A stretch of 64,000 bases of DNA from Candidatus Saccharimonadota bacterium (GTDB taxonomy: Bacteria; Patescibacteriota; Saccharimonadia; Saccharimonadales; AQU-01), in assembly GCA_037137935.1 (NCBI GenBank), contig JBAXJI010000001.1, positions 1,771 to 65,770 of the forward strand, read 5' to 3'. Below, one piece after another: positions 10,405-52,295 of the stretch. Each line of letters starts with the position of its first letter. The first letter of the stretch is position 1. The notes beneath the pieces are model-generated. The model worked only from the letters and a program-made list of their open reading frames with translations, ran no database searches and was not told where the DNA came from. Position numbers and translations under genes: made by a program.

Positions 10405-11701
10405 CTCTTAACCCTCCCCTTTTCTACTGTTCTTGTATGTTCCGCTGTGCCTCCCGATAAGGCAAATGTATTGCTGCAGTCCTCACAAACTATCAAAATT
10501 GTCGACGAACAAAATAACTACCCCGAAAAACTCTGGCCTTAAAATCGTCTATTTGTGATCGTGTGTTCGTTGATAAAATCTTGATGTTTTGATTTATGTG
10601 TAGACATATTTTTCTCGCTTTTTTGTTTTACTTTTTGCGGACAATTCATACTACGAGATGCGTTATAAAATCTTGGAAGCCGGACGGTAAATCCGCCCAA
10701 TATAAAATGTATGGCAGTTACCGTCCTTTGGCTTTTTTGACTGACCGCTCTTTATGCTTTTCAGCACTCGGAGCGAGGTGTAACTGGAGCAGTTACTTTT
10801 GGTAATATTCTCGTAAATTACCTCACCTACAGTACTAAATTATTACGCTTATGTCAATACGATTATAATGTAATTATAACAACTATACAGTGTGGGAAGA
10901 TGTTCTGAATAAATGAAATATAGGCAATTTAATGTTATCAATATGACAACGATAATTCTCAAAATAAATGCACATAATACGAACATAGCCTGAACACAGA
11001 CCCAAGCGTTAAGAGTTACTGCAGCTTGGATTCAGGCGCCGTGAAAATGGATTTAAGACGCATAATTTGGTGATTAATGCCTGGTATTGGGCCCTAAAAA
11101 TGAAAAATTTATCTAATATTTATCGCTCCCATGGGCTTGAATTTACGTATTTTTAGACTTGATGAATAGCCATTTAATCCAGTGAATAATTGGCCAAAAC
11201 TGGACCATTCTGGCTGCTAATTTTGCCTTTAGATTCTGCATAAATAAACCTCATGTGATGTATGGCGCAGCCGTAAATGTTTACTAGCTAAGGCTGGATA
11301 TCTACATAGATCATTCGTATCAATAATCTTAGGCAATGCACTCATAATATGCTCATAAGCGATTAACTAGGTCATTATTGACGCTAAAACGCGGTATAGG
11401 GGCTTAAAATCGCTCTAACAGATACTGGAGCATCTGCTTAGGATCTATTGACCAGCAGATGATCTAATCCCCCACCCGCCAACCATACCGTCTATTAATA
11501 ATTTGCGACCTGTTTAGCCATTTCAGCAACAATAATAATTTAAAATTGCTAAAAATCATTAAAAACGGCTTTTTTAGGTGAATTTATCGACTGTTACTAA
11601 TATTTCGCCAAAACCTAATGATTGTGACTATATTTTTAGCCAATTCTCACCCCTGTTAATATAGTTATGCACAGCTTTATTTACTATTTTAACCACAAAC
11701 A

Positions 11702-11735
11702 TGTTGACAGCTAAAAAGACAATGTATAGGATATA
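11702..11735 (+). promoter_or_regulatory. Sigma70-like promoter (TTGACA - 17 bp - TAGGAT/ATAAAT)
   Basis: TTGACAgctaaaaagacaatgtaTAGGATATAAAT lies in an otherwise ORF-free region, upstream of a structured segment that ends in a terminator. Confidence 0.4.
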
Positions 11736-11903
11736 AATAGCACTGAATAAAAAAGGTGCTCAAAAACAAAAACGTCTTCAGTAACAACGGCTTATCGCAA
11801 GCCGTTGTTCCATAAAAACAATTAGTTCTAATAACAAAATCAAACACACACCAAAACTCATCACCCAAGAAAACCCCGCCACAAATAGGCGGGTTTTTCT
11901 TTG
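11736..11903 (+). ncRNA. Candidate small RNA (about 150-170 nt) bounded by promoter and intrinsic terminator
   Basis: Downstream of the promoter are two hairpins (agcac...gtgct; AACAACGGCTT-atcgc-AAGCCGTTGTT). A GC-rich hairpin CCCCGCC-acaaatag-GGCGGG followed by TTTTTCTTT lies at 11872-11903. No ORF of 60 aa or more. Confidence 0.3.
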
Positions 11904-11998
11904 TAGAGATCAACACCCCGCCGATAACTTTGTAATCTTTTATTCATAATTTTTTAGCCCACACTGCCCTACACTATTCAATTAGAAATGAGGCCAAC

Positions 11999-13525
11999 AT
12001 GAGTGCGACCGTACAAAGCGTTATCGAATCGGGTTCTGCGGGCGTAATAATAGATGTGGAGTGCCATTTATCTAACGGCCTGCCCAGTATTATCATCGTC
12101 GGACTGGCCAACAAAGCGGTCGATGAAGCCAAGGAGAGGTTGCGCGGCGCATTTACTAATGCTGAGCTCAAGCTACCAAAGAAGCGCATTACTGTTAATC
12201 TAGCTCCCGCAGATATTCCAAAAGACAGCACAAGCTTCGATCTAGCTATAGCCACGGCAATCTTAATCGCCGGCAGCCAGACTAGCCAAGCTCTTGGCGA
12301 CAATACTTTAATGGTTGGAGAGCTCGCACTTAACGGTAGCGTTCGCCCAGTCCGAGGTATTATCGGTAAATTACTAGCCGGGCGTGAGTTGGGATTCGAT
12401 ACATTTTATATTCCCTACGGCAACGCTCGCCAAGCTCTACTAGTACCAAATATAACCATTATCCCCGTTCAGAATATCCGTGATGTTTATTTACACCTAA
12501 ATAATACTGTCAGCTTAAAATCTATCGCCACCAATAACGGAACCACCGGACGTGCTAAATCGTCGCCGGGAGATAGTACTAGCAGCGACTTTAAGTATGT
12601 TGTGGGCCAACACAGAGCCAAGCGTGCGCTCGAAATAGCTGCCGCCGGCTCACACAATGTTCTACTTAACGGACCGCCAGGCACCGGGAAAAGCATGCTA
12701 GCAAAAGCCTTGCCGACCATCCTGCCTGCGCTCAGCCCAGAAGAAATGCTCGAAGTAACTCATCTTCACAGCCTAGCCAGCAAACAATACGACGTGATTA
12801 TTCATAACAGACCGTTTCGTTCACCACATCATAGTGCGAGCGATATATCTATAATTGGTGGCGGGCAGTATCCTCGCCCTGGCGAAATTAGCTTAGCTCA
12901 CAGAGGTATATTATTCTTGGATGAGTTGCCAGAATTTGGTAGAGCTACAATTGAAGCTCTACGACAACCACTCGAAGACAAAATAATAAGCGTGGCGCGA
13001 GCGCGTGATAGCCTTGTCTTTCCGGCCCATTTTATCCTAGTTGCAACCGCCAACCCCTGCCCCTGCGGATATTACGGCACCAGCCATGAATGTAGCTGCA
13101 TGCCTCACCAAATAACCAACTACCAACGCAAATTATCTGGGCCAATTATCGATCGAATTGATATGTATGTAGATGTTGATGAAGTGGTTCACGCCAAGTT
13201 GCTAACCAGCGACGACCAAGAATCCAGCGCTGAAATTGCCGATCGGGTAGTTTTAGCCCGAGCTCGGCAGACTGAACGATTCCAGACTACTACCAAAACT
13301 AACAGCGATATGACTAATCAAGATATTAAAAAGATCGGCCTACTCTCTTCTGAGGCACAGGAACTGCTCAATCAGGCGGCTTCGCGGCTGCAGATTTCGG
13401 CTCGGCATTATATGAAGTCTATCAAGGTGGCTCGGACTATTGCTGATTTGGAAGGCTCAGAACAGATTACTCCGGCTCATATGGCGGAGGCCTTACAATA
13501 CCGCAAACGGACTATCACTTTTTAA
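11999..13525 (+). CDS. comM: Mg-chelatase-like AAA+ ATPase, competence protein ComM (YifB family)
   Basis: 508 aa. N-terminal Lon-like domain. Walker A LLNGPPGTGKS, Walker B FLDELPEF. C-terminal ChlI/YifB region with CPCGY Zn motif. Confidence 0.9.
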   Translation: MSATVQSVIESGSAGVIIDVECHLSNGLPSIIIVGLANKAVDEAKERLRGAFTNAELKLPKKRITVNLAPADIPKDSTSFDLAIATAILIAGSQTSQALGDNTLMVGELALNGSVRPVRGIIGKLLAGRELGFDTFYIPYGNARQALLVPNITIIPVQNIRDVYLHLNNTVSLKSIATNNGTTGRAKSSPGDSTSSDFKYVVGQHRAKRALEIAAAGSHNVLLNGPPGTGKSMLAKALPTILPALSPEEMLEVTHLHSLASKQYDVIIHNRPFRSPHHSASDISIIGGGQYPRPGEISLAHRGILFLDELPEFGRATIEALRQPLEDKIISVARARDSLVFPAHFILVATANPCPCGYYGTSHECSCMPHQITNYQRKLSGPIIDRIDMYVDVDEVVHAKLLTSDDQESSAEIADRVVLARARQTERFQTTTKTNSDMTNQDIKKIGLLSSEAQELLNQAASRLQISARHYMKSIKVARTIADLEGSEQITPAHMAEALQYRKRTITF

Positions 13526-13544: not shown

Positions 13545-13790
13545 GCCACTTTTGGTTCGGCAAAAGATGGCGCAAAACCGAGGGGCGGTGTCTACTTCTT
13601 GATACAGTCTCCAGTCAAGCCTGACAACTGCCTGCGGAACTAGGCCCGCTCTATTACTTTGGGAGGGCGGGCCGTCAAACAGTCCTCGGCTAATAGTAGT
13701 CAGTTTGACGAGACATGTATCAGGAAGCAGTCAAGCCCCGTAAAAGACCATGGATGCCCGCTGGAGGCGGGCTATTTTTTACGGATCAGT
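13545..13790 (+). repeat. Conserved structured element, copy A, ending in an intrinsic terminator (gcccgctggaggcgggc + TATTTTTT)
   Basis: Shares ordered sequence blocks (cttttg..caaaag hairpin; cgcaaaaccgaggggcggtg; cggaactag; gtcaaacagtcctcgg; caagcccc; ggatgcccgctggaggcgggc) with the reverse complement of 14456-14690. Confidence 0.55.
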
Positions 13791-13818
13791 CATTATTTGT
13801 TAGTGTATAATCTCTCTT

Positions 13819-14454
13819 ATGAAATATGAAGTTCCTTTTGTTGCTAATACATCTGATGACTTGCACTGTTTACAGGCGGCTTACATGATGATTACAAAGT
13901 TTTTCCAGAAAGACTTCGATATATGTATGGACGAATGGTCACAACTTACCGGTTTTGAAACAGATAAAGGCACCTGGGCCAATGCGGGATTATTATGGTT
14001 TATGGACAATGGGTATGATGTCAGCCACATTTCCCTTTTTGATTACAAATCTTTCGTGAATAGCCCCGAAGACTACCTTGTTAAGCTCACAGGTGAAAAG
14101 GTTGGAGCTTGGCAGATAGCGCACACCAATATCCCTGCCGAAGTCAGTAGGGTTAAAAAGTTATTGGAATCTGGAGTAATAGAGAGACGCGAACCAACCA
14201 TCGAAGATATTAAGAACTTACTTGATGATGGATATTTAGTCCGAGTCATGGTCAACTCCTCTAGACTTAATGGCACGGACGGCTATATTGGCCATGCCGT
14301 ACCAATTATAGGGTATGATGAAGAGAATATAATTTTCCATGATCCAGGCCTTCCACCACTAGAAAATCGTAGAATAAGCATCAATGACTTCGAAAAAGCC
14401 TGGGCCGACCCCAACCCCGAATCAAAAGAACTCGACGCCATCAAACTCGTATAA
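13819..14454 (+). CDS. Papain-fold cysteine peptidase, peptidase C39-like domain protein
   Basis: 211 aa. Cys in DDLHCLQAAYMMI and His in GHAVPIIGYDEEN-IIFHDP are spaced as in C39/BtrH-like peptidases. Confidence 0.5.
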   Translation: MKYEVPFVANTSDDLHCLQAAYMMITKFFQKDFDICMDEWSQLTGFETDKGTWANAGLLWFMDNGYDVSHISLFDYKSFVNSPEDYLVKLTGEKVGAWQIAHTNIPAEVSRVKKLLESGVIERREPTIEDIKNLLDDGYLVRVMVNSSRLNGTDGYIGHAVPIIGYDEENIIFHDPGLPPLENRRISINDFEKAWADPNPESKELDAIKLV

Positions 14455-14455
14455 T

Positions 14456-14690
14456 TATTGCCCGCCTCCAGCGGGCATCCTTGGGCTTAGTGGGGCTTGG
14501 CGACGACCCGAGATAGATTCCTGCAAAAAGACAACAAACTTCTCCCCGAGGACTTGTTTGACGCTGCGGAGTAGCTAGTTCCGGAGGGCGTGTTGTCTTT
14601 TTGTTAGGAAGCTATATCAAGTTGGCGCCACCGCCCCTCGGTTTTTGCGTTACTTTTGCCGAGACAAAAGTAACAAGATGAAGTTGACCT
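14456..14690 (-). repeat. Conserved structured element, copy B (inverted relative to copy A)
   Basis: The reverse complement contains the same ordered blocks as 13545-13790, including cttttg..caaaag, cgcaaaaaccgaggggcggtg and the terminal ggatgcccgctggaggcgggc hairpin. Confidence 0.55.
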
Positions 14691-14712
14691 CTGATGTTCT
14701 CTCTGTTATAAT
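14684..14712 (+). promoter_or_regulatory. Sigma70-type promoter for the infC-rpmI-rplT operon
   Basis: TTGACC (14684-14689), 17-bp spacer, TATAAT (14707-14712). Confidence 0.6.
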
Positions 14713-14748
14713 GGGACGAACCTAAATGATAGCAAGGAGAACGAACTT

Positions 14749-15303
14749 ATCGCTAAACCGACTCGTCTGAACCATCTTATTCAGGCGTCACAACTACGTG
14801 TAGTGGACGAAGACGGCAAATTACTTGGCGTCATGTCGAAAGGTGAAGCTTTACGTTTGGCAGAAGAAGCAGGACTGGATTTGGTGGAGATTTCACCGGA
14901 CGCCAGCCCACCAGTAGCTAAAATTGTCGATTGGGGCAAGTTTAACTACCAGCGCACAAAGCAGCTTCAGAAGAATAAACGCAACGTCAAAGTGGTTGAG
15001 ATAAAGCAAATGCGCTTCGGTCTCAAGATTGGCGAAAACGATTTAGCCGTCAAATTGCGCAAGGTTACAAGCTTCTTGGAAGCTGGTCACAAGGTTAAAA
15101 TCGGAGTTTGGTACAAGGGCCGCGAAATGGCTCACCAGGAACTAGGTTATAAACTTGCGGCTAAAGTGATCGAGATGTTCGGGGACAGCATAGTGGTTGA
15201 ACAATCACCATCACTCGCCGGACGACAATTATCATTCGTAATAAGAGGTACAGGCAAAGCCTTACCTAACCTAAACCAGGAGAAGAAAAATGCCAAAGCT
15301 TAA
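14749..15303 (+). CDS. infC: Translation initiation factor IF-3, probably with a non-AUG start (ATC/ATT)
   Basis: Sequence ...RLNHLIQASQLRVVDEDGKLLGVMSKGEALRLAEEAGLDLVEISPDA matches IF-3. The reading frame is open upstream to a stop at 14692-14694. RBS AAGGAGA at 14734-14740 lies 8 nt before ATC at 14749. IF-3 genes classically use AUU/AUC starts. The ORF-track start (GTG at 14803) would truncate the conserved N-terminal segment. Confidence 0.85.
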   Translation: MAKPTRLNHLIQASQLRVVDEDGKLLGVMSKGEALRLAEEAGLDLVEISPDASPPVAKIVDWGKFNYQRTKQLQKNKRNVKVVEIKQMRFGLKIGENDLAVKLRKVTSFLEAGHKVKIGVWYKGREMAHQELGYKLAAKVIEMFGDSIVVEQSPSLAGRQLSFVIRGTGKALPNLNQEKKNAKA

Positions 15304-15484
15304 GTCACACAGCGGCACAAAAGACCGCATCAAAATCACCAAGAACGGCAAAGTACTACGCCGTCATTCGATGCGCAGTCACTTCTTGCAGAAGAAGAGT
15401 GCAGCTCGTAAGCGTAAATTAGCTGGCACCGAACAGATCGTCGGTAAATTTGCACGAAATATCAAGACAAGAATGGGAGTATAG
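15290..15484 (+). CDS. rpmI: 50S ribosomal protein L35
   Basis: MPKLKSHSGTKDRIKITKNGKVLRR... typical bL35. Overlaps the infC stop. Confidence 0.9.
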   Translation: MPKLKSHSGTKDRIKITKNGKVLRRHSMRSHFLQKKSAARKRKLAGTEQIVGKFARNIKTRMGV

Positions 15485-15829
15485 ATGAGAGTTAAACGAG
15501 GCGTCACCAGTCACGCCAGACACCAGAAGATTCGCAAAGCTACTAAGGGCTTCACTAGAGGCAACCGTAGCAGTATTAAAAGAGGCCGCCAAGCTGTTAC
15601 AAAGTCATTGCAGCACGCTTATCGCGACCGACGCAACCGCAAGCGAACATTCCGACAAGTATGGAATGCTCGTATTAATGCAGCTGCTCGCTTACACGAC
15701 ACTACTTACAGCCGATTAATTGCTGCCCTAAAAACTGCTAACATCATTCTAGATCGCAAGATCCTAGCTGAACTAGCTGTTAATGAGCCAAAATCTTTTG
15801 AAGCAGTAGTCAAAGCTACCAACAAATAG
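15485..15829 (+). CDS. rplT: 50S ribosomal protein L20
   Basis: MRVKRGVTSHARHQKIRKATKGFTRGNR... typical bL20. Confidence 0.9.
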   Translation: MRVKRGVTSHARHQKIRKATKGFTRGNRSSIKRGRQAVTKSLQHAYRDRRNRKRTFRQVWNARINAAARLHDTTYSRLIAALKTANIILDRKILAELAVNEPKSFEAVVKATNK

Positions 15830-15868: not shown

Positions 15869-15899
15869 ACACCGCCTTTTAGGGGCGGTGTTTTTATAT
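15869..15899. terminator. Bidirectional intrinsic terminator between convergent rplT and rnpB
   Basis: ACACCGCC-tttta-GGGGCGGTGT is flanked by an A-run upstream and TTTTTAT downstream, so both strands have U-tracts. Confidence 0.65.
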
Positions 15900-15901
15900 A
15901 T

Positions 15902-16270
15902 GCCAGATGATCTGTAAGCCGGGTTCTGTCCTCGTTTGCACGAGTTCTGATCATCTATCTAGGCCTAAAATTGCTCTTAGGCTCGAGCGGGTTTTGTGAA
16001 TTGCCTCGGCGGGACGCCTTATATGAGACATATCTCCTTGCAACGTACTGGGTTTACCTTCGTCTCATGTCACCATGAGATGCTGTGAGCTCTTACCTCA
16101 CTCGTTTCATCCTTACCGTCAGTCTTTCGACTGCTTAGGCGGTTTAGTTTCTGTGGCACTTTCCCTAGGGTTGCCCCCGGTCGCCGTTAGCGACAGTACT
16201 TCCCTGTGTTGCCCGGACTTTCCTACCGACCATTGTTGCCAATAGTCCGTCGATCAGTCGATTATCTGGC
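15902..16270 (-). ncRNA. rnpB: RNase P RNA (bacterial type A)
   Basis: The reverse complement contains GGAAAGTCCGGGC (P4 5' strand), GGGAAAGTGCCACAGAAA, GGTAAGAGCTCAC and the 3' ACAGAACCCGGCTTA (P4 3' strand). The terminal P1 pairs GCCAGAT with ATCTGGC. Confidence 0.85.
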
Positions 16271-44191: not shown

Positions 44192-45109
44192 GTGATGTTA
44201 TTTAGCAAAGCAAAGACTGATTATTTGGAATATCTTGAGATTGAGCAAAATCGATCCCAGAAGACTATAGCCAATTATGATCATTATCTGACACGCTTAA
44301 TAGATTTTGCCGGAGAGATAAAAATAAGTGAAATCGATGCTGAACTTATTCGTAAATGGCGTCTCTGGCTAAATAGACTCGGCACCAACACCTCTGACGA
44401 ATTACAAAAATCGACACAGAACTATCATCTTATAGCTTTAAGAAGTTTTTTGAAGTACTGCGCTAAGCGTGACATCCCTGCCCTTACGGCTGACAAAATC
44501 GAACTCGCCCGAACCGTCCGTAAACAAGTAACATTCTTGAACGAAGACGAGCTAGACCGTCTATTTGCCCAACCCGATATCAGCAAGTTGTCTGGCATTC
44601 GTGATCGAGCAATCCTAGAGCTACTCTTTAGTAGTGGTCTGCGCGTATCGGAGCTTGTTGGGCTCGACAAAGACCATATCAACCTGAAGCGACGCGAGTT
44701 TATGGTTAGAGGTAAGGGCCAGAAAGATCGTCCTATCTTTATTAGTCCAGCAGCCGCTAAGTGGCTAAGCCACTACTTAGAAAAACGCGAAGATAATGTT
44801 AAGCCGCTATTCGTCCGTTATAGTGGCAGCAAAAAAGTTGACCTATCTGGCGACTTTCACAGATTGACTGCGCGTAGTGTCCAACGATTAGTCGCCCGTT
44901 ACGCCCTGCTAGCCGGAATAACCAAACATGTCAGCCCACACACACTCAGACACAGCTTTGCTACCGACCTAATCATGAACGGCGGTGATTTACGCGCCGT
45001 ACAAGCCATGCTAGGCCACAGCAATATCGCCACAACGCAAATCTACACCCACGTTACCGACCCTCACCTTCGTGCTATCCACGAAAAGTTTCACCGCAAA
45101 GACAACTAG
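44192..45109 (+). CDS. xerC: Tyrosine site-specific recombinase, XerC/XerD family
   Basis: N-terminal SAM-like core-binding domain (YLEYLEIEQNRSQKTIANYDHYL). The catalytic C-terminus has R...HxxR...Y (LRHSFATDLIMNGGDLRAVQAMLGHSNIATTQIYTHV). Confidence 0.8.
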   Translation: MMLFSKAKTDYLEYLEIEQNRSQKTIANYDHYLTRLIDFAGEIKISEIDAELIRKWRLWLNRLGTNTSDELQKSTQNYHLIALRSFLKYCAKRDIPALTADKIELARTVRKQVTFLNEDELDRLFAQPDISKLSGIRDRAILELLFSSGLRVSELVGLDKDHINLKRREFMVRGKGQKDRPIFISPAAAKWLSHYLEKREDNVKPLFVRYSGSKKVDLSGDFHRLTARSVQRLVARYALLAGITKHVSPHTLRHSFATDLIMNGGDLRAVQAMLGHSNIATTQIYTHVTDPHLRAIHEKFHRKDN

Positions 45110-46227
45110 TTAATACCCTTCGCATTGCCACTGCCGCTCAAACAATCAGTATCAATAGCTCCAATAGCATTGATTTTGATCTTCTTGCAAATCTCTGTAG
45201 CTGAATCAATCGAAAAGCTAGGTGTTAGATTTTTGAGGGTGAACGATCTTCTGGCACTAATACGCTTTGTGATGCCGCCAACCTTAGTAGTAACATCTAT
45301 AACTGTCTGAGATTCACTCAAGGAAATACTACTACTCGTAGAATCCTGAGCAATTATAGATACTGTGGCGGCAGAATATATAGGACGAACCCTGACATAG
45401 AAATCTTTGCCCGGCACAACATACATTGTGGCTCGACAAAATTTAGGAGAATTACTTGCCGAACATTTACCGCTAACAATCTCGCCCTTAGAGTCTCCGC
45501 CTTCCACACTATAACCAGTACCGGTGCCATCAGTCGGATACAAATAAAAAGCCTGACTGCTATCAAGCAAGGATTGGGCAGTATTACTCGCCCCCCAAGG
45601 CACTATATCTACCTTTAACACTGGCGGATATGAACTAGACCATTCGGCTAGCTTAGTAAAGCCAGAACCCACTGGAGGTGTGGATGTCGCGGGATTTGTG
45701 CCGTCCCAGCCAACCTCAATTCGTGAGATATCAGTAGCCCCCCTTGTGATAATGTGGATACTCTGTGAATTATCCTTCTCAACAGAATCATAGACTAATG
45801 AATTCTCATCTCGATTTATCAATAAGCAAGTTACGGCCCCTGAACTAATTCCGGTCGGCAATACTATAGGGGGGAAGGCATTTTTCATTTTATATATAGA
45901 GCTGTCTGGCCCAGAACATTTGTTTCCCGAGATACTAGCGACAGTATATGCATTATTGTCTACCGCAGAAATAATAGTGTTTATGGTGGCCTCTCCTGTG
46001 TAGTAAGCCTGGCTATTGAGTTGACGATCTATAGTTTGACGCTGCTCCCGGTTAATGACTTGCGAGTAGGTCATAACTATAATGGTTATTAAAACCATCG
46101 TTATAAGAGTGACTATTATAGACACTATACCCTTTTGATTACTATGTATTTTTGAGCGCTTAGGCATAATCCTTATAGTCATTATAGTCGATTCTGAACT
46201 ATTGTAGTTAATTCGGATACTGCACAA
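45106..46227 (-). CDS. Pilus-associated protein / putative minor pilin (distal gene of T4P operon)
   Basis: 373 aa. N-terminal hydrophobic helix. Lies with three prepilin-like genes. Confidence 0.35.
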   Translation of the reverse strand: MCSIRINYNSSESTIMTIRIMPKRSKIHSNQKGIVSIIVTLITMVLITIIVMTYSQVINREQRQTIDRQLNSQAYYTGEATINTIISAVDNNAYTVASISGNKCSGPDSSIYKMKNAFPPIVLPTGISSGAVTCLLINRDENSLVYDSVEKDNSQSIHIITRGATDISRIEVGWDGTNPATSTPPVGSGFTKLAEWSSSYPPVLKVDIVPWGASNTAQSLLDSSQAFYLYPTDGTGTGYSVEGGDSKGEIVSGKCSASNSPKFCRATMYVVPGKDFYVRVRPIYSAATVSIIAQDSTSSSISLSESQTVIDVTTKVGGITKRISARRSFTLKNLTPSFSIDSATEICKKIKINAIGAIDTDCLSGSGNAKGIN

Positions 46228-46853
46228 AATTCAGTACCGACATTTTTGCCGTCACGACAACGAATATCACCCTTGAGCGGAGCGAGCCCCGCGGTAATAA
46301 CAGATGAAGTGCTAGTACAGTCACCAACTATACTTGGACTACACAACAAGACTGCCTCACCATAAACTAGCCTAACTTTTACTTCATAAACTCCTAATAC
46401 CTGCGTAACAGACAGTGCGACTAAACGTGCGCCTGGTGGAACTAGCTCTCGTTGAGACGCATAATCAAATGAGGTGAGGTCAGCTGGCCCCGTACATGCT
46501 GAAGGGCTGTCTCTAACTAAGACATGCGAAACCTTATCCCCTCCAGCCGTCACTTCTGCCGTCTTGTCAGTTAATCGCTTGCCCAAAACATATGTATATC
46601 GAGCTTCACCAGTACAAAAATAATTTGCTCCAGCAGCAACTCCGCCACTGCCAAACCTTACAGAACCCGTAATCTCTGCACTTATTTCGCGCACAGCTTC
46701 TTGAGTTCTTGTCTGTAGAATACCCTTATAATACATACGTCCGATTCGAATCGTCATAGTCGATACTATAGTCAAAAAAACAGACATAATCGTCGTAGCA
46801 ATCAATAACTCTATGAGTGTAAAGCCGCTTTGATGTTCGTTATATTTTTTCAT
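46182..46853 (-). CDS. Prepilin-type N-terminal cleavage/methylation domain protein (minor pilin)
   Basis: N-terminus MKKYNEHQSG|FTLIELLIATTIMSV is a class III signal (G/FTLIE). Confidence 0.7.
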   Translation of the reverse strand: MKKYNEHQSGFTLIELLIATTIMSVFLTIVSTMTIRIGRMYYKGILQTRTQEAVREISAEITGSVRFGSGGVAAGANYFCTGEARYTYVLGKRLTDKTAEVTAGGDKVSHVLVRDSPSACTGPADLTSFDYASQRELVPPGARLVALSVTQVLGVYEVKVRLVYGEAVLLCSPSIVGDCTSTSSVITAGLAPLKGDIRCRDGKNVGTEFCAVSELTTIVQNRL

Positions 46854-46856
46854 AAT

Positions 46857-47342
46857 TTAATACACAGAGTAGTTCAGGACTACCTCCCCTTTGCCGTTTC
46901 CTCCGGCTTGCCACCATCTAACACGAATTACAAAATCCTTGCTACCTCCGCTTGATCTATTAATAAGCGTGTAGTAAGTAGTATTACTGTTAGTGATGCA
47001 TTTTAGTGGGTAATTCGTTAGAGTGTCGCTATTAAAAGAAGTAGGAGGAAGTGGGTTGACAAAATTAACCACCTCAACAGTGGGCGGATCGGCTATGCTA
47101 TCAACTTTTAAGCAAAAATTAGTAGCAGATGTTGCTGTGAATCCTATGATGGACGAAAAAGCTCTTAGCTCGTCGGCCTGCGACTCTGCCACCTTAAGTG
47201 CCCCCGCTCTCTCCTGTGACCTATAAACACTCGTTAGATTACTTACGACCGTCCTATATGCCATTGTTAAGATCATACTGGTAATTGTCAGCGAAAACAT
47301 GACCTCTATAAGCGTATCTCCGTAATTATCAAGCTTTTTCAT
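46857..47342 (-). CDS. Prepilin-like minor pilin
   Basis: N-terminus ...GDTLIEVMFSLTITSMIL is a degenerate prepilin motif. Confidence 0.55.
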   Translation of the reverse strand: MKKLDNYGDTLIEVMFSLTITSMILTMAYRTVVSNLTSVYRSQERAGALKVAESQADELRAFSSIIGFTATSATNFCLKVDSIADPPTVEVVNFVNPLPPTSFNSDTLTNYPLKCITNSNTTYYTLINRSSGGSKDFVIRVRWWQAGGNGKGEVVLNYSVY

Positions 47343-48214
47343 AGACAGGCCCCATCTGCAAACTGAACCGTAACACTTGACTGACGACCATTGCCACCGA
47401 TAGTAACATATGCGTGTCTATCTGGTCCTGTTTCTGAATTTTCTAAACAAATCTTAATTCCACTGCTTGGATTTTTAGTCGAATCTCTGCCTGAAGAAGC
47501 GTCCAACGTCTTGCGCCACTCGCCATAAGGAAAAAGACTCGTAGTACCAGTCCCAAAAGGGTCCCATATAATTGGCTCCGCAGGGATTATGTCGGTTTGA
47601 GCATCGCCAGACACTAAACTAGCGCCTGAAGAATTAGCGAAGGTCGTGGTAAACCCCAGACCATTAAGTGGTGTATACGCCCCGCTCAAATTAATATAAG
47701 AAACACTGTGCACAACAACACCATAGGACAGTCTTTCAGATATACTACCAAGATTATTGACATCAATGATTGGCCAAGTTTGAGCCTCGTAAAGGCTTTT
47801 TGCAGGTCTTTTAACTCCACTAATGTCAGTATCTTTCTTTCCGACCAATGCAAAAACATCATAACGGGGACTCCCTTCAGTGAACTGCATTCCTATGCCA
47901 ACAAATAGACACCCCTCGCTAGTGCCGCGTCTGTCTGAAGCTGTTGGCGGAGCGTAATCAATAATCACAGCGTTCGCAGCAGTGCCGTCATGGGTACAAA
48001 CGTAGTTCGTGCTAGTTGGATTATTTCCGGTAGCAACGTCATTAGCTATATCCATAAGTCGGGACTGAAAGGCGTTTACAGATTGAACAAACTCCGTTTT
48101 TGATTGCTGTCCATTAATAATGGTTGCGAGCATTCCGAACAAACCCATTGAAATAGATAGCGTAAGCATTACTTCAATTAAGGTAAACGCTCGTGAATTT
48201 AACCCTGTTCTCAT
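47339..48214 (-). CDS. Prepilin-like minor pilin
   Basis: N-terminus ...RAFTLIEVMLTLSISMGLF. Confidence 0.6.
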   Translation of the reverse strand: MRTGLNSRAFTLIEVMLTLSISMGLFGMLATIINGQQSKTEFVQSVNAFQSRLMDIANDVATGNNPTSTNYVCTHDGTAANAVIIDYAPPTASDRRGTSEGCLFVGIGMQFTEGSPRYDVFALVGKKDTDISGVKRPAKSLYEAQTWPIIDVNNLGSISERLSYGVVVHSVSYINLSGAYTPLNGLGFTTTFANSSGASLVSGDAQTDIIPAEPIIWDPFGTGTTSLFPYGEWRKTLDASSGRDSTKNPSSGIKICLENSETGPDRHAYVTIGGNGRQSSVTVQFADGACL

Positions 48215-48285
48215 CTATTAAATTATAGCATAACCACGATCACCTAAATCAGTCACGACCTGCTATATTATCTTGCCGATAATAG

Positions 48286-49182
48286 CTAACCTATCATTAG
48301 TAGCTTTTTATACCAGGCAATAATGCTAGAACCGAACAAATATACAATAATCGTAGCAGCAATTAGAAAAGGACCAAACGGTATCTTACTACCCCTATTA
48401 GCCTTCCCTGTGATCAACAAAGGCAACGAGAACAGTGAGCCAAGGCAGGATGCCATAAAAAGAAGTAAAAGTGCTGGCCAAGGACCACCAACAAGCAAGC
48501 CCAGCACAGCACCGAGCTTAACGTCCCCGCCACCTATCAACTCTTTTCCAGGTACATGAAATAACACAAAAAATATGCCTCCACCTATAAGCAAACCATA
48601 TACAGCGCCAAGAATAGCACTGACGCCCCCGTGATAAATTGTACCCATAATAAAAACATGAACCAGTGATAAAAAGAATAAAGGTACAACTATGCGGTTC
48701 GGCAGCAGCAACCATCTAATGTCATAAATTACAAGCGCAACAAAACTAACAACAAAAATTAACCAAATCACAAACAACAAGACGCTACTATAATTCCAAG
48801 CAAGAGGCCAATATATATAAGAAATGACAAATAGTAAGGGAGTGACGATCTCAGTGACGGGCGTATCCTCGTAAGTAGCGTGACAATACCGGCATTTACC
48901 TCGTAGCTGCAACCAACTTAATATGGGTATTAAATCAATAGCTGATAATTGGTGTCTACAATTAGGACACATAGATCGACCACTGACAATGGACATTTCT
49001 TTTGATTTAACACTGGATGGCGAATATTTTAGAGAACTGGTAGATTTGTGTTTCTTGAAACTGCTAGTATAGACAGTATTTTGCTGCTCATGTATACGCC
49101 AAACCAAGGCATTAATAAAGCTGCCGAAACATATCCCAGTAATTAAAAGATAAACCATAATCATGTTAACCCATAATACCAT
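48286..49182 (-). CDS. pilD: Prepilin peptidase (peptidase A24)
   Basis: Zn-binding CPNC...CRYC. Polytopic membrane protein. Catalytic GGGDVKLGAVLGLLVG motif. Confidence 0.8.
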   Translation of the reverse strand: MVLWVNMIMVYLLITGICFGSFINALVWRIHEQQNTVYTSSFKKHKSTSSLKYSPSSVKSKEMSIVSGRSMCPNCRHQLSAIDLIPILSWLQLRGKCRYCHATYEDTPVTEIVTPLLFVISYIYWPLAWNYSSVLLFVIWLIFVVSFVALVIYDIRWLLLPNRIVVPLFFLSLVHVFIMGTIYHGGVSAILGAVYGLLIGGGIFFVLFHVPGKELIGGGDVKLGAVLGLLVGGPWPALLLLFMASCLGSLFSLPLLITGKANRGSKIPFGPFLIAATIIVYLFGSSIIAWYKKLLMIG

Positions 49183-49237
49183 GTAGCCAATAAAAAAACG
49201 GGGCGAAGTGCCCCGTTTTAATAATTACAGATTTATA

Positions 49238-49759
49238 CTAGTTTGCCTGTACGCAATATGGTGTAGCCGTACCATTTGTTTCTAGTAGGTACTGGATAGC
49301 TACTTTTGTATTTGAGGCATCGTAAGAAACCGCGCCAGCTGCACCGCATGTGCCATTTTGGAATAATGCTAATGCTGTCAAGTTAGCGTTAGCGGCTCCT
49401 GTTACCATTGCTGCTGCGCCTATAGCTGGTGTCTGTGAAATCGTTAACGTGTTAGCGCCAACTGCAGCACCGTAAGCTAATCCATTGTATTGCGCAAGTG
49501 ACCCAGTGGCGTTAACCAAACTTAGACCACTGGTTGCTGGTGCTGTAGCGATTGCACTCCCTGGATTATTAGCATACCAGTCTATTACTGCTGCCCCTAC
49601 TCTTGCTATATCATTTTTCCTAGCCGTATTACGTTGACTTCTCTGTAAGCCAGGTACAGCCAAGAAAACTATTAACATGATAAGTCCGGCTATCGCTAGC
49701 ACTATCATTGCTTCAATGATAGTGAACCCTTCAGATCGCTTTTTTAAGTTTTTGAACAT
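49238..49759 (-). CDS. pilA: Type IV major pilin
   Basis: MFKNLKKRSEG|FTIIEAMIVLAIAGLIMLIV prepilin signal. 173 aa with C-terminal Cys pair. Confidence 0.75.
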   Translation of the reverse strand: MFKNLKKRSEGFTIIEAMIVLAIAGLIMLIVFLAVPGLQRSQRNTARKNDIARVGAAVIDWYANNPGSAIATAPATSGLSLVNATGSLAQYNGLAYGAAVGANTLTISQTPAIGAAAMVTGAANANLTALALFQNGTCGAAGAVSYDASNTKVAIQYLLETNGTATPYCVQAN

Positions 49760-49911
49760 ATAATACGCCCCCCCTAGAAATTATTAATTATGCTTATGTT
49801 TTTAATGATACGTTTATCTTAAATAAAAAGCAATACTATTTATATACTTTATGGCGAATACCGCTATGTCGTATTCGATCTCTATTAAGCCCTTCTCTTA
49901 TGGGCCATTTA

Positions 49912-51132
49912 CTAAATAACTGTGGACTGGCCTGCTAGGTTATATATAGGTAGAAGTACTGCCGCCACAATAATAAATGCCATAACACCAAGTACCACCA
50001 TTAACAGCGGCTCGATTATTAATGACAGGCTCTTTACCTGTTCGTCAACTTCCTTCTCGTAGTATTCGGCTGTCTTTTCTAACATCTTCTCTATTGCACC
50101 GGACTTCTCTCCAATATTTAACATATTTGATACTAGGGGCAAGAAATTATTGTCACCCTTAATTGCTTCAGATAACGGCTTTCCGCCTCTAACTTTTTCT
50201 ATGGCAGCACTGAGTGATTTTGCTATATGGACATTATTAATGGCCTGAGAGGTGATCTCGAGGACTTTTATTAATGACACCCCGCTAGATACTAATGTGG
50301 TGGCCGTGCGGGCGAATCTAGCCATATACAACTTCATAAACAACGGACCTATCGGCCAAGCCTTCATCTTAATATTGTCAAATAAACTCTTACCGACGAC
50401 GCCTCTTGCCCAGCGCGACACTGCAAATCCGCCAAAACCTACCATAATCAATACTAACCACCAAAATTTCGAAATTATATGGGATATATCCAGTAATATT
50501 ACTGTCACGAAAGGTAACTTTGCGCCTTTCATTCCTGCGTACAACACCTCAACCTGAGGCAAAACCTTTACTATCATAAAAGACATAACCGCAATCATTA
50601 CTACGACCACAATCATCGGATAGATTAATGCACCCCTTACTTTACGAATAATCTCAGCATCCTTCTCTTGTTGGTAAGCCAGCCTCTCTAGCGCTTTGTC
50701 CAAAGTACCCGATGTCTCGCCAGCCTGCACCAAACTCACATATACCTGATTAAATACCATCGGATGCCTGCCCAAAGAGTCTGACAAGGTAGAGCCAGCC
50801 TCTATATCGGCTATGATTACGCTGCCGATGTTTTTGAGAGGCTTACTGGCTGACTGCTCAATTACTGTGATTAACGCCTGAATAAGCGGCAGCCCGGCGT
50901 TAATAAGCGTAGAGAGCTGTCGTGAGAACAAAACCTTGTCTTTTCCTGAAACCTTCTTCTTAAACCTGCCAACACTAAGGCCACCTTCAGTCTTTAAAAC
51001 TTTTATGTCTATAGGAGAAAATCCTGCCTTAAAAATAAGATTAGCAGCAGTTTGCTCGTCATCTGCCTGGACTTCTGACTTTACCTTTTGGCCTGTAGCT
51101 GGGTCGTGAGCAGTGTATTTATAGGTCAGCAT
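49912..51132 (-). CDS. pilC: Type IV pilus platform protein PilC (GspF family)
   Basis: 406 aa. Duplicated T2SS-F domains and three TM segments. Confidence 0.8.
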   Translation of the reverse strand: MLTYKYTAHDPATGQKVKSEVQADDEQTAANLIFKAGFSPIDIKVLKTEGGLSVGRFKKKVSGKDKVLFSRQLSTLINAGLPLIQALITVIEQSASKPLKNIGSVIIADIEAGSTLSDSLGRHPMVFNQVYVSLVQAGETSGTLDKALERLAYQQEKDAEIIRKVRGALIYPMIVVVVMIAVMSFMIVKVLPQVEVLYAGMKGAKLPFVTVILLDISHIISKFWWLVLIMVGFGGFAVSRWARGVVGKSLFDNIKMKAWPIGPLFMKLYMARFARTATTLVSSGVSLIKVLEITSQAINNVHIAKSLSAAIEKVRGGKPLSEAIKGDNNFLPLVSNMLNIGEKSGAIEKMLEKTAEYYEKEVDEQVKSLSLIIEPLLMVVLGVMAFIIVAAVLLPIYNLAGQSTVI

Positions 51133-51227
51133 ACGAGCTCCGCCACACTGTCGTCACTAACAGATTCATGAAGTGATATGATTACTAAATCTATATTTAT
51201 CATACGGTCAATTACCTCTGTTATAAA

Positions 51228-52295
51228 CTAAGCCCTCATTAAACGATCGAGCTCCTCGACATCAACCGCGTAGGTGCGGGCATCGTCATAACTAATCGCG
51301 CCGCTATGTATTAGGCCAATCAAGGTCTTGTCCATAGATTGCATACCAAACTCAGCCCCGGTCTGAATTACAGCTTCCAGTTGATGGCTCTTACCCTCTC
51401 GGATAATATTACGAACTGCTGGCGTGACAACTAGTATTTCGGCCGCCACCGTACGACCACCACCAATAGTTGGGATTAGTCGCTGAGAACAGATTGCCAT
51501 TAAAATGTTAGACAACTGTGACCTAATTTGCGGTTGTTGATGCGGCGGGAAAACATCGACCATGCGGTCAATACTTTGTGAAGCTGAGTTTGTGTGCAGA
51601 GTCGTCAAGACAAGATGGCCAGTTTCGGCAATGGTGATCGCTGAGGAAATAGTCTCAAGGTCTCTCATTTCTCCAATAAGCACAACATCTGGATCTTCAC
51701 GTAGTGCTGAGCGAAGAGCTGCCGAGAAGGAGTAAGTGTCATAGTGAACTTCTCGTTGAACAATTACAGAACGCTTCGACTTATGCGTGAACTCAATCGG
51801 GTCTTCGATAGTCAAAATATGAGCCGGTCGCTCTTCGTTAATCTTATTAATAATCGCAGCTTGCGTGGTGGACTTACCAGATCCAGTTGGGCCAGTAACT
51901 AGCACTAACCCTCTTGGATAATTTGCAAAAGTACTGACAATTGCTGGCAGACCCAGTTCTTCTATTGTTTTGATCTGATTCGGAATCAAACGAAGTGCTG
52001 CAGCCAAGTTGCCTCGCTCGTGAAAAGCATTAACGCGGAATCTACCTAGATCACCAAATGCAAAACTAAAATCAAACTCTTTATCCTTGAGCAGAATCTG
52101 TTTCTGGTCTTCGTCTAATATAGAAAAAATCAGCAACTCAACTGTTTCCTCGGTCAGAGGAGCAACACTCGGCACAGGCACAATAGAGCCATCGATGCGT
52201 AACATTGGAGCGACTCCAACCTGTAAATGTAGATCAGAAGCCTTCTTTTTGATGACTTCTTCTAGCAACTCTTCAATTTTTACATGTCCTTGCAT
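51228..52295 (-). CDS. pilT: Twitching motility retraction ATPase PilT
   Basis: 355 aa. Walker A LVTGPTGSGKSTT. Asp box, Walker B and His box as in PilT. Confidence 0.85.
   Translation of the reverse strand: MQGHVKIEELLEEVIKKKASDLHLQVGVAPMLRIDGSIVPVPSVAPLTEETVELLIFSILDEDQKQILLKDKEFDFSFAFGDLGRFRVNAFHERGNLAAALRLIPNQIKTIEELGLPAIVSTFANYPRGLVLVTGPTGSGKSTTQAAIINKINEERPAHILTIEDPIEFTHKSKRSVIVQREVHYDTYSFSAALRSALREDPDVVLIGEMRDLETISSAITIAETGHLVLTTLHTNSASQSIDRMVDVFPPHQQPQIRSQLSNILMAICSQRLIPTIGGGRTVAAEILVVTPAVRNIIREGKSHQLEAVIQTGAEFGMQSMDKTLIGLIHSGAISYDDARTYAVDVEELDRLMRA

Follow-up and report, generated by a model that had tools for sequence, protein, structure and literature searches.

A modular structured repeat family and the variable gene slots that it borders in Saccharimonas-like bacteria

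We analysed a 64,000-nt stretch of DNA from a Candidatus Saccharimonadota bacterium (hereafter the window), in which a putative C39-like cysteine peptidase gene lies between two inverted copies, each of ~230 nt, of an intergenic element: copy A (13545–13781, forward strand) and copy B (14453–14676, reverse strand). The left core flank is a comM/yifB-type Mg-chelatase-like ATPase gene (11999–13525, forward strand; assigned by Pfam and synteny), whose protein is 97% identical to that of a metagenome-assembled genome (MAG) named 'Candidatus Saccharibacteria bacterium'. The right core flank is the infC promoter with the infC-rpmI-rplT operon (14684–15829, forward strand; promoter TTGACC-17-TATAAT at 14684–14712). 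A first-pass annotation of the same DNA had carried copy B to 14690 and let the infC promoter overlap it; since copy B ends at about 14676, the promoter starts 8 nt past it and lies outside. As described below, copies A and B belong to a multi-copy repeat family, modular and non-coding, of a freshwater Saccharimonas-like lineage (Saccharibacteria/Patescibacteria), and its units, in tail-to-tail pairs, border fixed slots of the chromosome in which accessory and anti-phage genes come and go, replace one another and change orientation.

Copy A and the reverse complement of copy B were 78–80% identical over ~240 alignment columns, as a series of ordered conserved blocks with variable stretches between them, which bears out the two inverted copies with variable spacers described in the first pass. 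A repeat finder recovered four collinear inverted-repeat arms (I1, I2, I3 and I11) from the two copies, and an exact 17-mer (AAAACCGAGGGGCGGTG; 0.08 matches expected by chance) and an exact 21-mer (GGATGCCCGCTGGAGGCGGGC; 0.00 expected) common to both occurred nowhere else in the window. The fold shared by the two copies consists of a 5′ hairpin of 10–11 bp (core CTTTTG..CAAAAG), a long imperfect rod of ~160 nt that GGGGC/GCCCC closes in both, and a 3′ GC hairpin, with a short A-rich linker before the rod and another linker after it; the two hairpins that had been pointed out earlier, cttttg/caaaag and the terminal gcccgc/gcgggc, were both found in both copies. Specifically, the 5′ hairpin (hp1) of copy A, GCCACTTTTG-GTTCGG-CAAAAGATGGC, lies at 13545–13571 on the forward strand (CTTTTG..CAAAAG at 13549–13566), followed by the rod at 13582–13739, whose apical part contains CGGAACU, a variable hairpin and GUCAAACAGUCCUCGG according to predicted folds and pair counts. 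The 3′ GC hairpin and T-run of copy A (13756–13781, with GCCCGC-TGGAG-GCGGGC at 13756–13772) came up in a terminator scan as intrinsic-terminator-like and point into the slot. On the reverse strand, the 5′ hairpin of copy B, GTTACTTTTG-TCTCGG-CAAAAGTAAC, occupies 14649–14674 (CTTTTG..CAAAAG at 14653–14670), 9 nt from the infC -35 box; its rod (14492–14637) is unlike that of copy A in sequence, with pairing held by compensatory changes, and its 3′ GC hairpin (GCCCGC-TGGAG-GCGGGC, 14460–14476) faces the slot and abuts the peptidase stop codon. The minimum free energy (MFE) was −108.5 kcal/mol for copy A (z = −6.6) and −88.7 kcal/mol for copy B (z = −4.6), and 9 of 51 predicted pairs were kept by changes on both sides in the comparison of A with B alone.

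We collected further members of the family by several routes. When 185,579 species genomes were scanned with a three-block pattern, true matches came only from three Saccharimonas-type MAGs, in each of which copies lay on two or more contigs; of the 85 genome-scan matches, about 75 were GC-rich chance matches, as were the two viral matches of the first pattern. A scan of JGI metagenomes with a 5′-end pattern returned 19 contigs. Copies were mapped by nhmmer and a covariance model, and further loci were anchored by proteins; the compared loci or contigs, ~8–12 kb around each copy, are labelled by L-numbers (for example L006 and L105). This gave 39 distinct full copies of 221–245 nt from ~30 Saccharimonas-like contigs, besides truncated and decayed copies. 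With the Rfam 15 covariance models, which include 6S, SRP, HEARO/omega RNA, the L20 leader and riboswitches, no match reached the gathering score in the window, 12 related loci or 3 further loci, and at E ≤ 10 only three chance-level matches of 18 bits appeared, with no L20 leader or riboswitch above noise, so that a known RNA family was rejected. A phage, plasmid or viral origin was likewise rejected, since collections of plasmids, phages and viral contigs held no copy, and the literature searched contained no description of such a repeat. As far as Rfam and that literature reach, the family is previously undescribed. None of the outcomes that the first pass had named as refuting its view was seen: no housekeeping RNA was matched, the element has many further copies, and empty sites exist.

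Each unit is built from a T-rich tract, a 5′ hairpin, the linker GCGCAAAACCGA, a rod of ~55–60 bp with an exchangeable apical module, the linker AAGNCCATGGAT and a 3′ terminator-like hairpin, and the two unpaired linkers are nearly invariant across the family. The 5′ hairpin comes in GCCAC, GTTAC and GCTAC types, with an outer stem that covaries from GCCAC/GUGGC to GUUAC/GUAAC and GCUAC/GUAGC. The basal rod has two types, which we call alpha and beta. There are three apical modules, the first two being a long or a short hairpin between CGGAACU and UCARACAGUCCUCGG and the third an unrelated two-hairpin junction. The 3′ hairpin is either GCCCGC..GCGGGC (termG) or AUGAUUGCUAAAGACAAUCAU (termA). 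Copy A combines a GCCAC-type 5′ hairpin, an alpha basal rod, apical module type 1 and a GCCCGC-type 3′ hairpin (covariance-model match, 224 bits), and copy B a GTTAC-type 5′ hairpin, a beta basal rod, apical module type 2 and a GCCCGC-type 3′ hairpin without a good T-run (225 bits).

In the alignment of the 39 sequences, 98.2% of cells were paired over 51 pairs, and 19 of the 51 pairs showed double-sided change. Slid-register controls gave 37–48% paired cells and at most 7 double-sided pairs, and none of 500 shuffles reached the observed values, indicating that the unit is a structured element, as RNA or single-stranded DNA, under selection for pairing. The block conservation and the compensatory changes also uphold the earlier suggestion of selection on a fold rather than a recent duplication. 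A protein-coding unit was rejected: stops and indels interrupt the frames that run through the units, the indels are not multiples of three, and the open reading frame (ORF) starting MAQNRGAV stops after 11 codons in copy A and lacks a start codon in the GTTAC-type copies.

The same layout was found at three loci, namely comM–infC, ctp (encoding an S41 peptidase)–pyrG and rnc–rpsP, where a core gene on the forward strand is followed by a forward unit, the cargo, a reverse unit and a second core gene on the forward strand. The paired units therefore stand tail to tail, with their 3′ hairpins facing the cargo. Other sites hold single copies or pairs, and 5–7 or more distinct sites are occupied. 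At comM–infC, the slot content differed among contigs whose flanks are near-identical. The peptidase gene was present in the window, L105, L100, L127 and L128. In L109 the slot held genes for an 83-aa membrane protein and a 218-aa protein, and it was empty in L006 and L117–L126; in L006, whose comM is 97% identical, A and B abut tail to tail. In L008 (comM 81% identical) copy A stands alone at comM–infC, followed by AT-rich DNA, and in L009 (comM 76%) and L010 (comM 72%) this locus has no element. The covariance model found no copies in L001, L003, L005, L009 or L010. As a functional analogue at comM–infC in these distant genomes, the L010 intergenic region, whose degree of structure is unremarkable (z = −1.7), and a solitary hairpin in L009 were considered and rejected. 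The hairpin in question, GGTTACTTTTGCTTGCAAAAGTAAC at L009 7163–7186, resembles hp1 and lies 9 nt upstream of the infC -35 box, and a similar solo 5′ hairpin occurs ahead of the heliorhodopsin promoter in L072 (1727–1744). The 5′ and 3′ modules also occur alone more generally, the 3′ module as a terminator after a GNAT gene and the 5′ hairpin 8–9 nt upstream of infC and heliorhodopsin -35 boxes.

The rnc–rpsP slot varies in its content, with a size of 2.3 to >9 kb. Its genes encode a heliorhodopsin, a GNAT protein, an MmeI-type restriction-modification (R-M) enzyme, ResIII/DEAD and PLD-SNF2 helicases, SRA-HNH, C5 methylase and T5orf172 proteins, and a Schlafen-like helicase with MazG and HNH. 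The set of defence-type genes changes between contigs, and extra internal copies of the element separate some of the genes. This slot is a defence island. Note that the heliorhodopsin gene of the island (Pfam PF18761, E = 7e-82) lies between two same-orientation element copies or remnants (L101 922–2223, L106 886–1905, L107 3498–4732). Furthermore, towards the rpsP-side element the cargo always ends with the same two genes: the first encodes a 94-aa protein that combines a zinc-ribbon-like N-terminus with an FtsK-gamma DNA-binding domain (L106 9763–10047, L110 7603–7887, L072 1843–2127 and L101 12266–12547), the second a 151-aa protein. As a general partner of the element the FtsK-gamma protein was rejected, as it is found in the rnc–rpsP island only.

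The peptidase gene of the comM–infC slot (13804–14454, forward strand; ORF 13819–14454) matched Pfam PF13529 Peptidase_C39_2 with 29.2 bits against a cut-off of 24, although only residues 119–176 were covered, and the closest solved chain was 3erv_A, a 'putative C39-like peptidase' (E = 0.018). The match is weak yet above threshold, and it agrees with the C39-like assignment made in the first pass. The gene has its own extended -10 box (TGnTATAAT, 13804–13811), which ends 7 nt before the ATG at 13819, and no visible ribosome-binding site, so that its mRNA looks leaderless from the sequence. Homologues were confined to Saccharibacteria, and those of three other genomes sit in compact, differing contexts without the element; a link between the element and the peptidase family was therefore rejected. 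The gene was missing from the comM–infC slot of L006, L109 and L117–L126, and it was 99–100% identical in L105 even though the flanking repeats differ there. Close relatives with abutting copies and no gene inside bear out the earlier claim that the gene is an insertion between comM and infC. Because such gene-less pairs exist in relatives and homologues elsewhere lack the element, we conclude that the peptidase gene was inserted into a pre-existing pair and that the element is not tied to this peptidase family. The gene is an ordinary, incidental cargo, one allele of the content of the comM–infC slot.

Comparison between strains pointed to the repeats themselves as places of recombination. 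When the window was compared with L105, identity was 99–100% in the cargo and on the infC side but only 81–90% in the repeats, and the apical module of copy A was swapped. The comM side was 90–94% identical and the infC side 97–99% in the same strain pairs. The last ~150 nt of comM (window 13373–13525) form a local hot spot of divergence, with 81–85% identity to L105, L109 and L006 against 93–100% in the rest of the gene; recombination tracts begun in the repeat may extend into the end of comM. Across species the relation is reversed: between the window and L008, copy A was 94.9% identical, comM 76.9% and the infC operon 83.2%, and the contrast of copy A with comM argues for purifying selection on the repeat or its recent exchange.

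Inversion was also observed. A 460-nt inner segment of the empty pair was inverted in L006 relative to L068 (collinear flanks; reverse alignment of the segment at 89.4% identity). Among contigs whose L20 protein is identical, the rod type on the comM side (alpha or beta) was found in all four combinations with termA and termG, and exactly these four would result if inversions were nested, one over the outer and one over the inner conserved blocks. Both orientations of the segment between the outer hairpins were found only for cargo-less pairs, and the peptidase gene had the same orientation in all 5 contigs that carry it. Thus, of the invertible module proposed in the first pass, the occurrence of both orientations among strains stands for cargo-less pairs only, and nothing indicates a programmed switch. 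Every abutting pair joined an alpha to a beta unit and a termA to a termG hairpin; pairs with cargo and single copies were always without termA, and beta/beta pairs occurred only with cargo. This pattern is as expected if long perfect palindromes are avoided, or the empty allele could have been copied as a unit. Note that two independent assemblies have N-gaps exactly at the element pair (L118 3227–3236 and L124 3580–3678), which suggests mixed orientations or alleles within one sample. Being scaffolds with such gaps, the apparent 'triple copy' of L118 and 'no copy' of L124 were rejected as alleles.

The family, its fold, the geometry of the pairs, the fixed loci, the cargo polymorphism, the inversion states and the mosaicism of the units are well supported by these observations. 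For their interpretation, we favour, with a probability of roughly 0.55, a new kind of modular intergenic repeat whose copies serve as portable homology arms, probably also as terminators, for recombinational exchange of cassettes in naturally competent bacteria; the RecA- and competence-driven exchange and the role as terminator or insulator are what we infer from the comparisons. DNA taken up from outside would be integrated via homologous recombination, with the repeat arms as portable homology, and an incoming two-arm fragment would swap out whatever sits between the resident arms, giving gain, swap or loss of cargo. Recombination between inverted arms would flip the segment between them, and ectopic conversion among copies would reshuffle the modules. 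The 3′ hairpins would probably halt transcription entering the slot and, in some cases, leaving it. Natural competence and recombinational insertion have been reported in Saccharibacteria (PMC10633639, PMC10187176). ComM and type IV pilus genes lie in the window, consistent with support of exchange by competence; the pilus genes form a type IV pilus/competence-type cluster (46182–52295) that encodes a prepilin-like protein, an A24 prepilin peptidase, a PilC-like T2SSF protein and a T2SSE ATPase.

Several points weigh against this interpretation. The exchange mechanism is one that we infer, and recombination in the core-gene flanks alone could give the cargo polymorphism, with the repeats as mere bystanders. 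The conservation of copy A in the face of divergent comM genes (94.9% and 76.9%, window against L008) and the near-invariant unpaired linkers are features that a passive homology arm does not need, and they point to sequence-specific recognition. In addition, the role as terminator is weak for B-type ends, which have no T-run, and the hairpin of the empty slot is identical at at least three loci, so that a site-specific process could be at work. A few recurrent module types account for much of the covariation in the 39-copy alignment, and independent compensatory events are for this reason fewer than the cell counts suggest. Finally, all comparative data come from metagenome assemblies, where inverted repeats can be mis-assembled.

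The units might instead be new structured small-RNA genes, read from the strand that ends in the GC hairpin, in which case a pair would be two convergent small-RNA genes and the gap between their terminators would be permissive for landing genes. The strong conserved fold with covariation, the near-invariance of the unpaired linkers and the conservation of copy A far above that of flanking genes between species fit this well, and the T-run that follows the 3′ hairpin of many copies, among them copy A though not copy B, together with canonical C(UUCG)G apical loops on the forward strand of several copies, favour a forward-strand transcript. However, within 120 nt upstream no copy among the 39 had a sigma-70-like promoter of at least 10/12, and 18 of them lacked even a site of at least 8/12; the best anywhere was 8–9/12, on a scale on which the infC promoter scores 11/12. 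About half of the copies begin 6–9 nt after a terminator-like hairpin and T-run, and with the missing promoters this tells against the pair of convergent small RNAs that the first pass had offered. The preference for one strand also faded on closer comparison. G-U cells outnumbered A-C cells by 128 to 18 on the forward-derived structure, a comparison that is biased to the forward strand, and by 141 to 113 once the reverse-strand structure was included, so that the G-U strand test was dropped as proof of a forward RNA; the MFE was −100.8 kcal/mol forward and −99.5 kcal/mol reverse, forward being better in 20 of the 39 copies. A near-perfect duplex of 55–60 bp is unusual for a trans-acting small RNA, truncated and decayed copies exist, and the constant bracketing of variable cargo at three loci is left unexplained. 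We consider small-RNA genes unlikely. Far less can be said for a cis-regulatory role, with copy A as a riboswitch or attenuator leader of the peptidase and copy B as the infC leader or an L20-type autoregulatory region. Copy A does end in a terminator 38 nt before the peptidase ATG, and some other copies lie directly upstream of same-strand genes (for example L101 1985–2222 before a gene that starts at 2226), but the existence of empty-slot alleles, in which no gene lies between the copies, contradicts such a role. Copy B runs on the other strand and lies ahead of the infC promoter, the element is missing beside peptidase homologues elsewhere, an extended -10 box of the peptidase gene's own follows the terminator, and Rfam gave no L20-leader or riboswitch match above noise, all of which makes a leader highly improbable.

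Mobility by transposition or by site-specific recombination was also weighed. The tail-to-tail pair could be a foldback or miniature inverted-repeat transposable element (MITE)-like non-autonomous transposon with terminal inverted repeats of ~230 bp, its cargo-bearing versions being composite and its transposase encoded elsewhere. The family is indeed multi-copy and non-coding, with hairpins at both ends and ~230-nt inverted repeats at 5–7 or more sites, and it includes decayed copies. Furthermore, one cargo-less pair, identical in its inner junction (ATGATTGCTAAAGACAATCAT plus the GCCCGC hairpin), recurs at three or more loci, and a 32-nt leader and GTTAC-type end are common to the ctp and infC loci. 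An IS200/IS605-type palindrome-associated transposable element (PATE) would have a conserved target of 4–5 nt directly 5′ of its left end, along with distinct subterminal hairpins; here, hairpins stand at both ends, and the 5′ flank is T-rich (TTAT, CTTT, TTTA, TACC and others) with no fixed word. Against a transposon, the left and right flanks of the pairs share no direct repeat that could be a target-site duplication, and no fixed target was seen beyond the T-rich tract on the outer sides. Neither an integrase nor a transposase was found in or beside any slot (annotated slots and flanks, within 5 kb), and the only tyrosine recombinase in the window is a 305-aa Xer-like protein (44192–45109), which adjoins the pilus cluster 30 kb away. 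Orthologous sites are occupied in genomes whose comM is only 81% identical, the arms within a pair mostly differ in type, and the element is absent from the plasmid, phage and viral collections. The MITE-like mobile cassette of the first pass is thus not supported, given the lack of target-site duplications and nearby transposases and the use of the same chromosomal sites across species, and we regard a transposon as unlikely too. The units could also be folded recombination sites, attC-like or invertase-like, which a dedicated recombinase would recognise by structure and at whose 3′-hairpin junction it would capture or excise cassettes, besides flipping the segment. Structure kept by compensatory change with invariant cores, cargo always exactly between two 3′ hairpins, a specific alternative hairpin that marks every empty slot at several loci, four inversion states in one population, and internal direct copies that part genes in the rnc–rpsP island are all in line with such sites. 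However, no integrase or invertase gene lies beside any slot, the units have 230 nt against 57–141 nt for attC, and they are mostly inverted rather than direct; attC core motifs were not seen on inspection of the alignment. Filled and empty junctions show no duplicated conserved crossover core, and mosaic breakpoints are scattered within units, as homologous recombination predicts, making folded sites of this kind improbable. A bolder and, in our estimate, rather improbable version sees the repeats as recognition modules of a dedicated recombination system of the ultra-small candidate phyla radiation (CPR) bacteria, an integron-like or shufflon-like capture and inversion device whose sites would be 230-nt folded DNA or RNA elements with invariant linkers and an exchangeable apical 'specificity' module, and which would install and reshuffle defence genes at a few slots.

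In the favoured reading, the repeats are large palindromic intergenic elements that are comparable in kind to BIME/REP, ERIC, BOX and neisserial mosaic elements. REP/BIME sequences of enterobacteria are extragenic, palindromic and multi-copy, with units of 35–40 nt at hundreds of sites, and are tied to termination, mRNA 3′-end protection and recombination. By analogy, and not as a REP member, the new repeat is likewise an extragenic, palindromic, multi-copy mosaic of few module types in alternating orientation, and it shares the position after stop codons and between convergent genes; its units, however, have ~230 nt and three hairpin domains, show no sequence similarity to REP, and occupy a handful of fixed sites where pairs bracket variable cargo. 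ERIC/IRU and pneumococcal BOX elements are imperfect palindromes of 100–300 nt that form long rods when transcribed, BOX being built as boxA-B-C and ERIC carrying internal insertions. Like the new repeat they are modular, unusually conserved between species and without coding capacity, but the sequences are unrelated, with no Rfam match, and the rod of the new unit has a distinct hairpin on its 5′ and on its 3′ side; to our knowledge, tail-to-tail pairs that delimit cargo slots are not a described property of ERIC or BOX. In Neisseria, a competent host, the cassettes of mosaic elements and minimal mobile elements are exchanged by transformation and homologous recombination, and repeats such as Correia elements are hot spots of rearrangement. 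The arms there are mainly core genes and the repeats have 20–150 bp, whereas here the borders are formed by a dedicated pair of structured 230-nt repeats, and it is these repeats that have recombined most. Integron attC sites keep structure over sequence, have 57–141 nt with R''/R' core sites, and stand in direct arrays next to intI; the new units likewise keep their structure and flank promoter-poor accessory genes in arrays at fixed chromosomal platforms, but are three to four times longer at 221–245 nt, mostly inverted and highly conserved in sequence, with no integrase nearby. Finally, defence hot spots in the core genome have been studied in E. coli and Pseudomonas. The rnc–rpsP slot resembles them in that its R-M and helicase-nuclease genes form an island that varies from strain to strain and is flanked by conserved core genes; it differs in that its borders are a specific structured repeat and not only core or tRNA genes.

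How CPR bacteria with tiny, streamlined genomes keep flexible accessory and defence genes is poorly understood, and repeat-marked slots would offer a concrete mechanism. The repeat pairs explain why metagenome assemblies break at these sites, and the family is a candidate for Rfam-type curation. If the units are recognised by a specific protein or act as RNA, interest in them would rise sharply. The slots would also be natural neutral landing pads for engineering these bacteria, whose genetic manipulation has been reported (PMC10633639).

Some further observations were made around these loci. Two contigs of JAYVTZ01 (GCA_043788365.1), L044 and L065, are titled 'Burkholderiaceae bacterium', yet these contigs, 5 and 13, carry Saccharibacteria-type comM-infC synteny and the repeat, and the bin is for this reason mislabelled or mixed. 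The ~1.5 kb upstream of comM in the window (~10450–11998) has no long ORF, and its identity to L006 was only 78.6%, compared with 94% inside comM. In the corresponding position L009 carries a faint DprA-like gene; the stretch in the window may be a decayed gene or an unannotated feature.

On the infC side, the RNase P RNA gene was polymorphic in length, with 370 nt in the window (15899–16269, reverse strand), 537 nt in L105 (3786–4322) and L109 (2245–2781), 530 nt in L008 (8700–9230) and 489 nt in L009 (8664–9152). In L105 an insertion of ~170 nt replaces ~13 nt near window position 16015–16027, and the L008 gene is flipped with respect to the infC operon. In addition, the interval from rplT to the RNase P RNA gene has ~340 nt more in L105 (3378–3717, corresponding to window ~15833) and L109 than in the window, with an apparent ORF of ~115 aa, and this stretch looks like another small presence/absence polymorphism.

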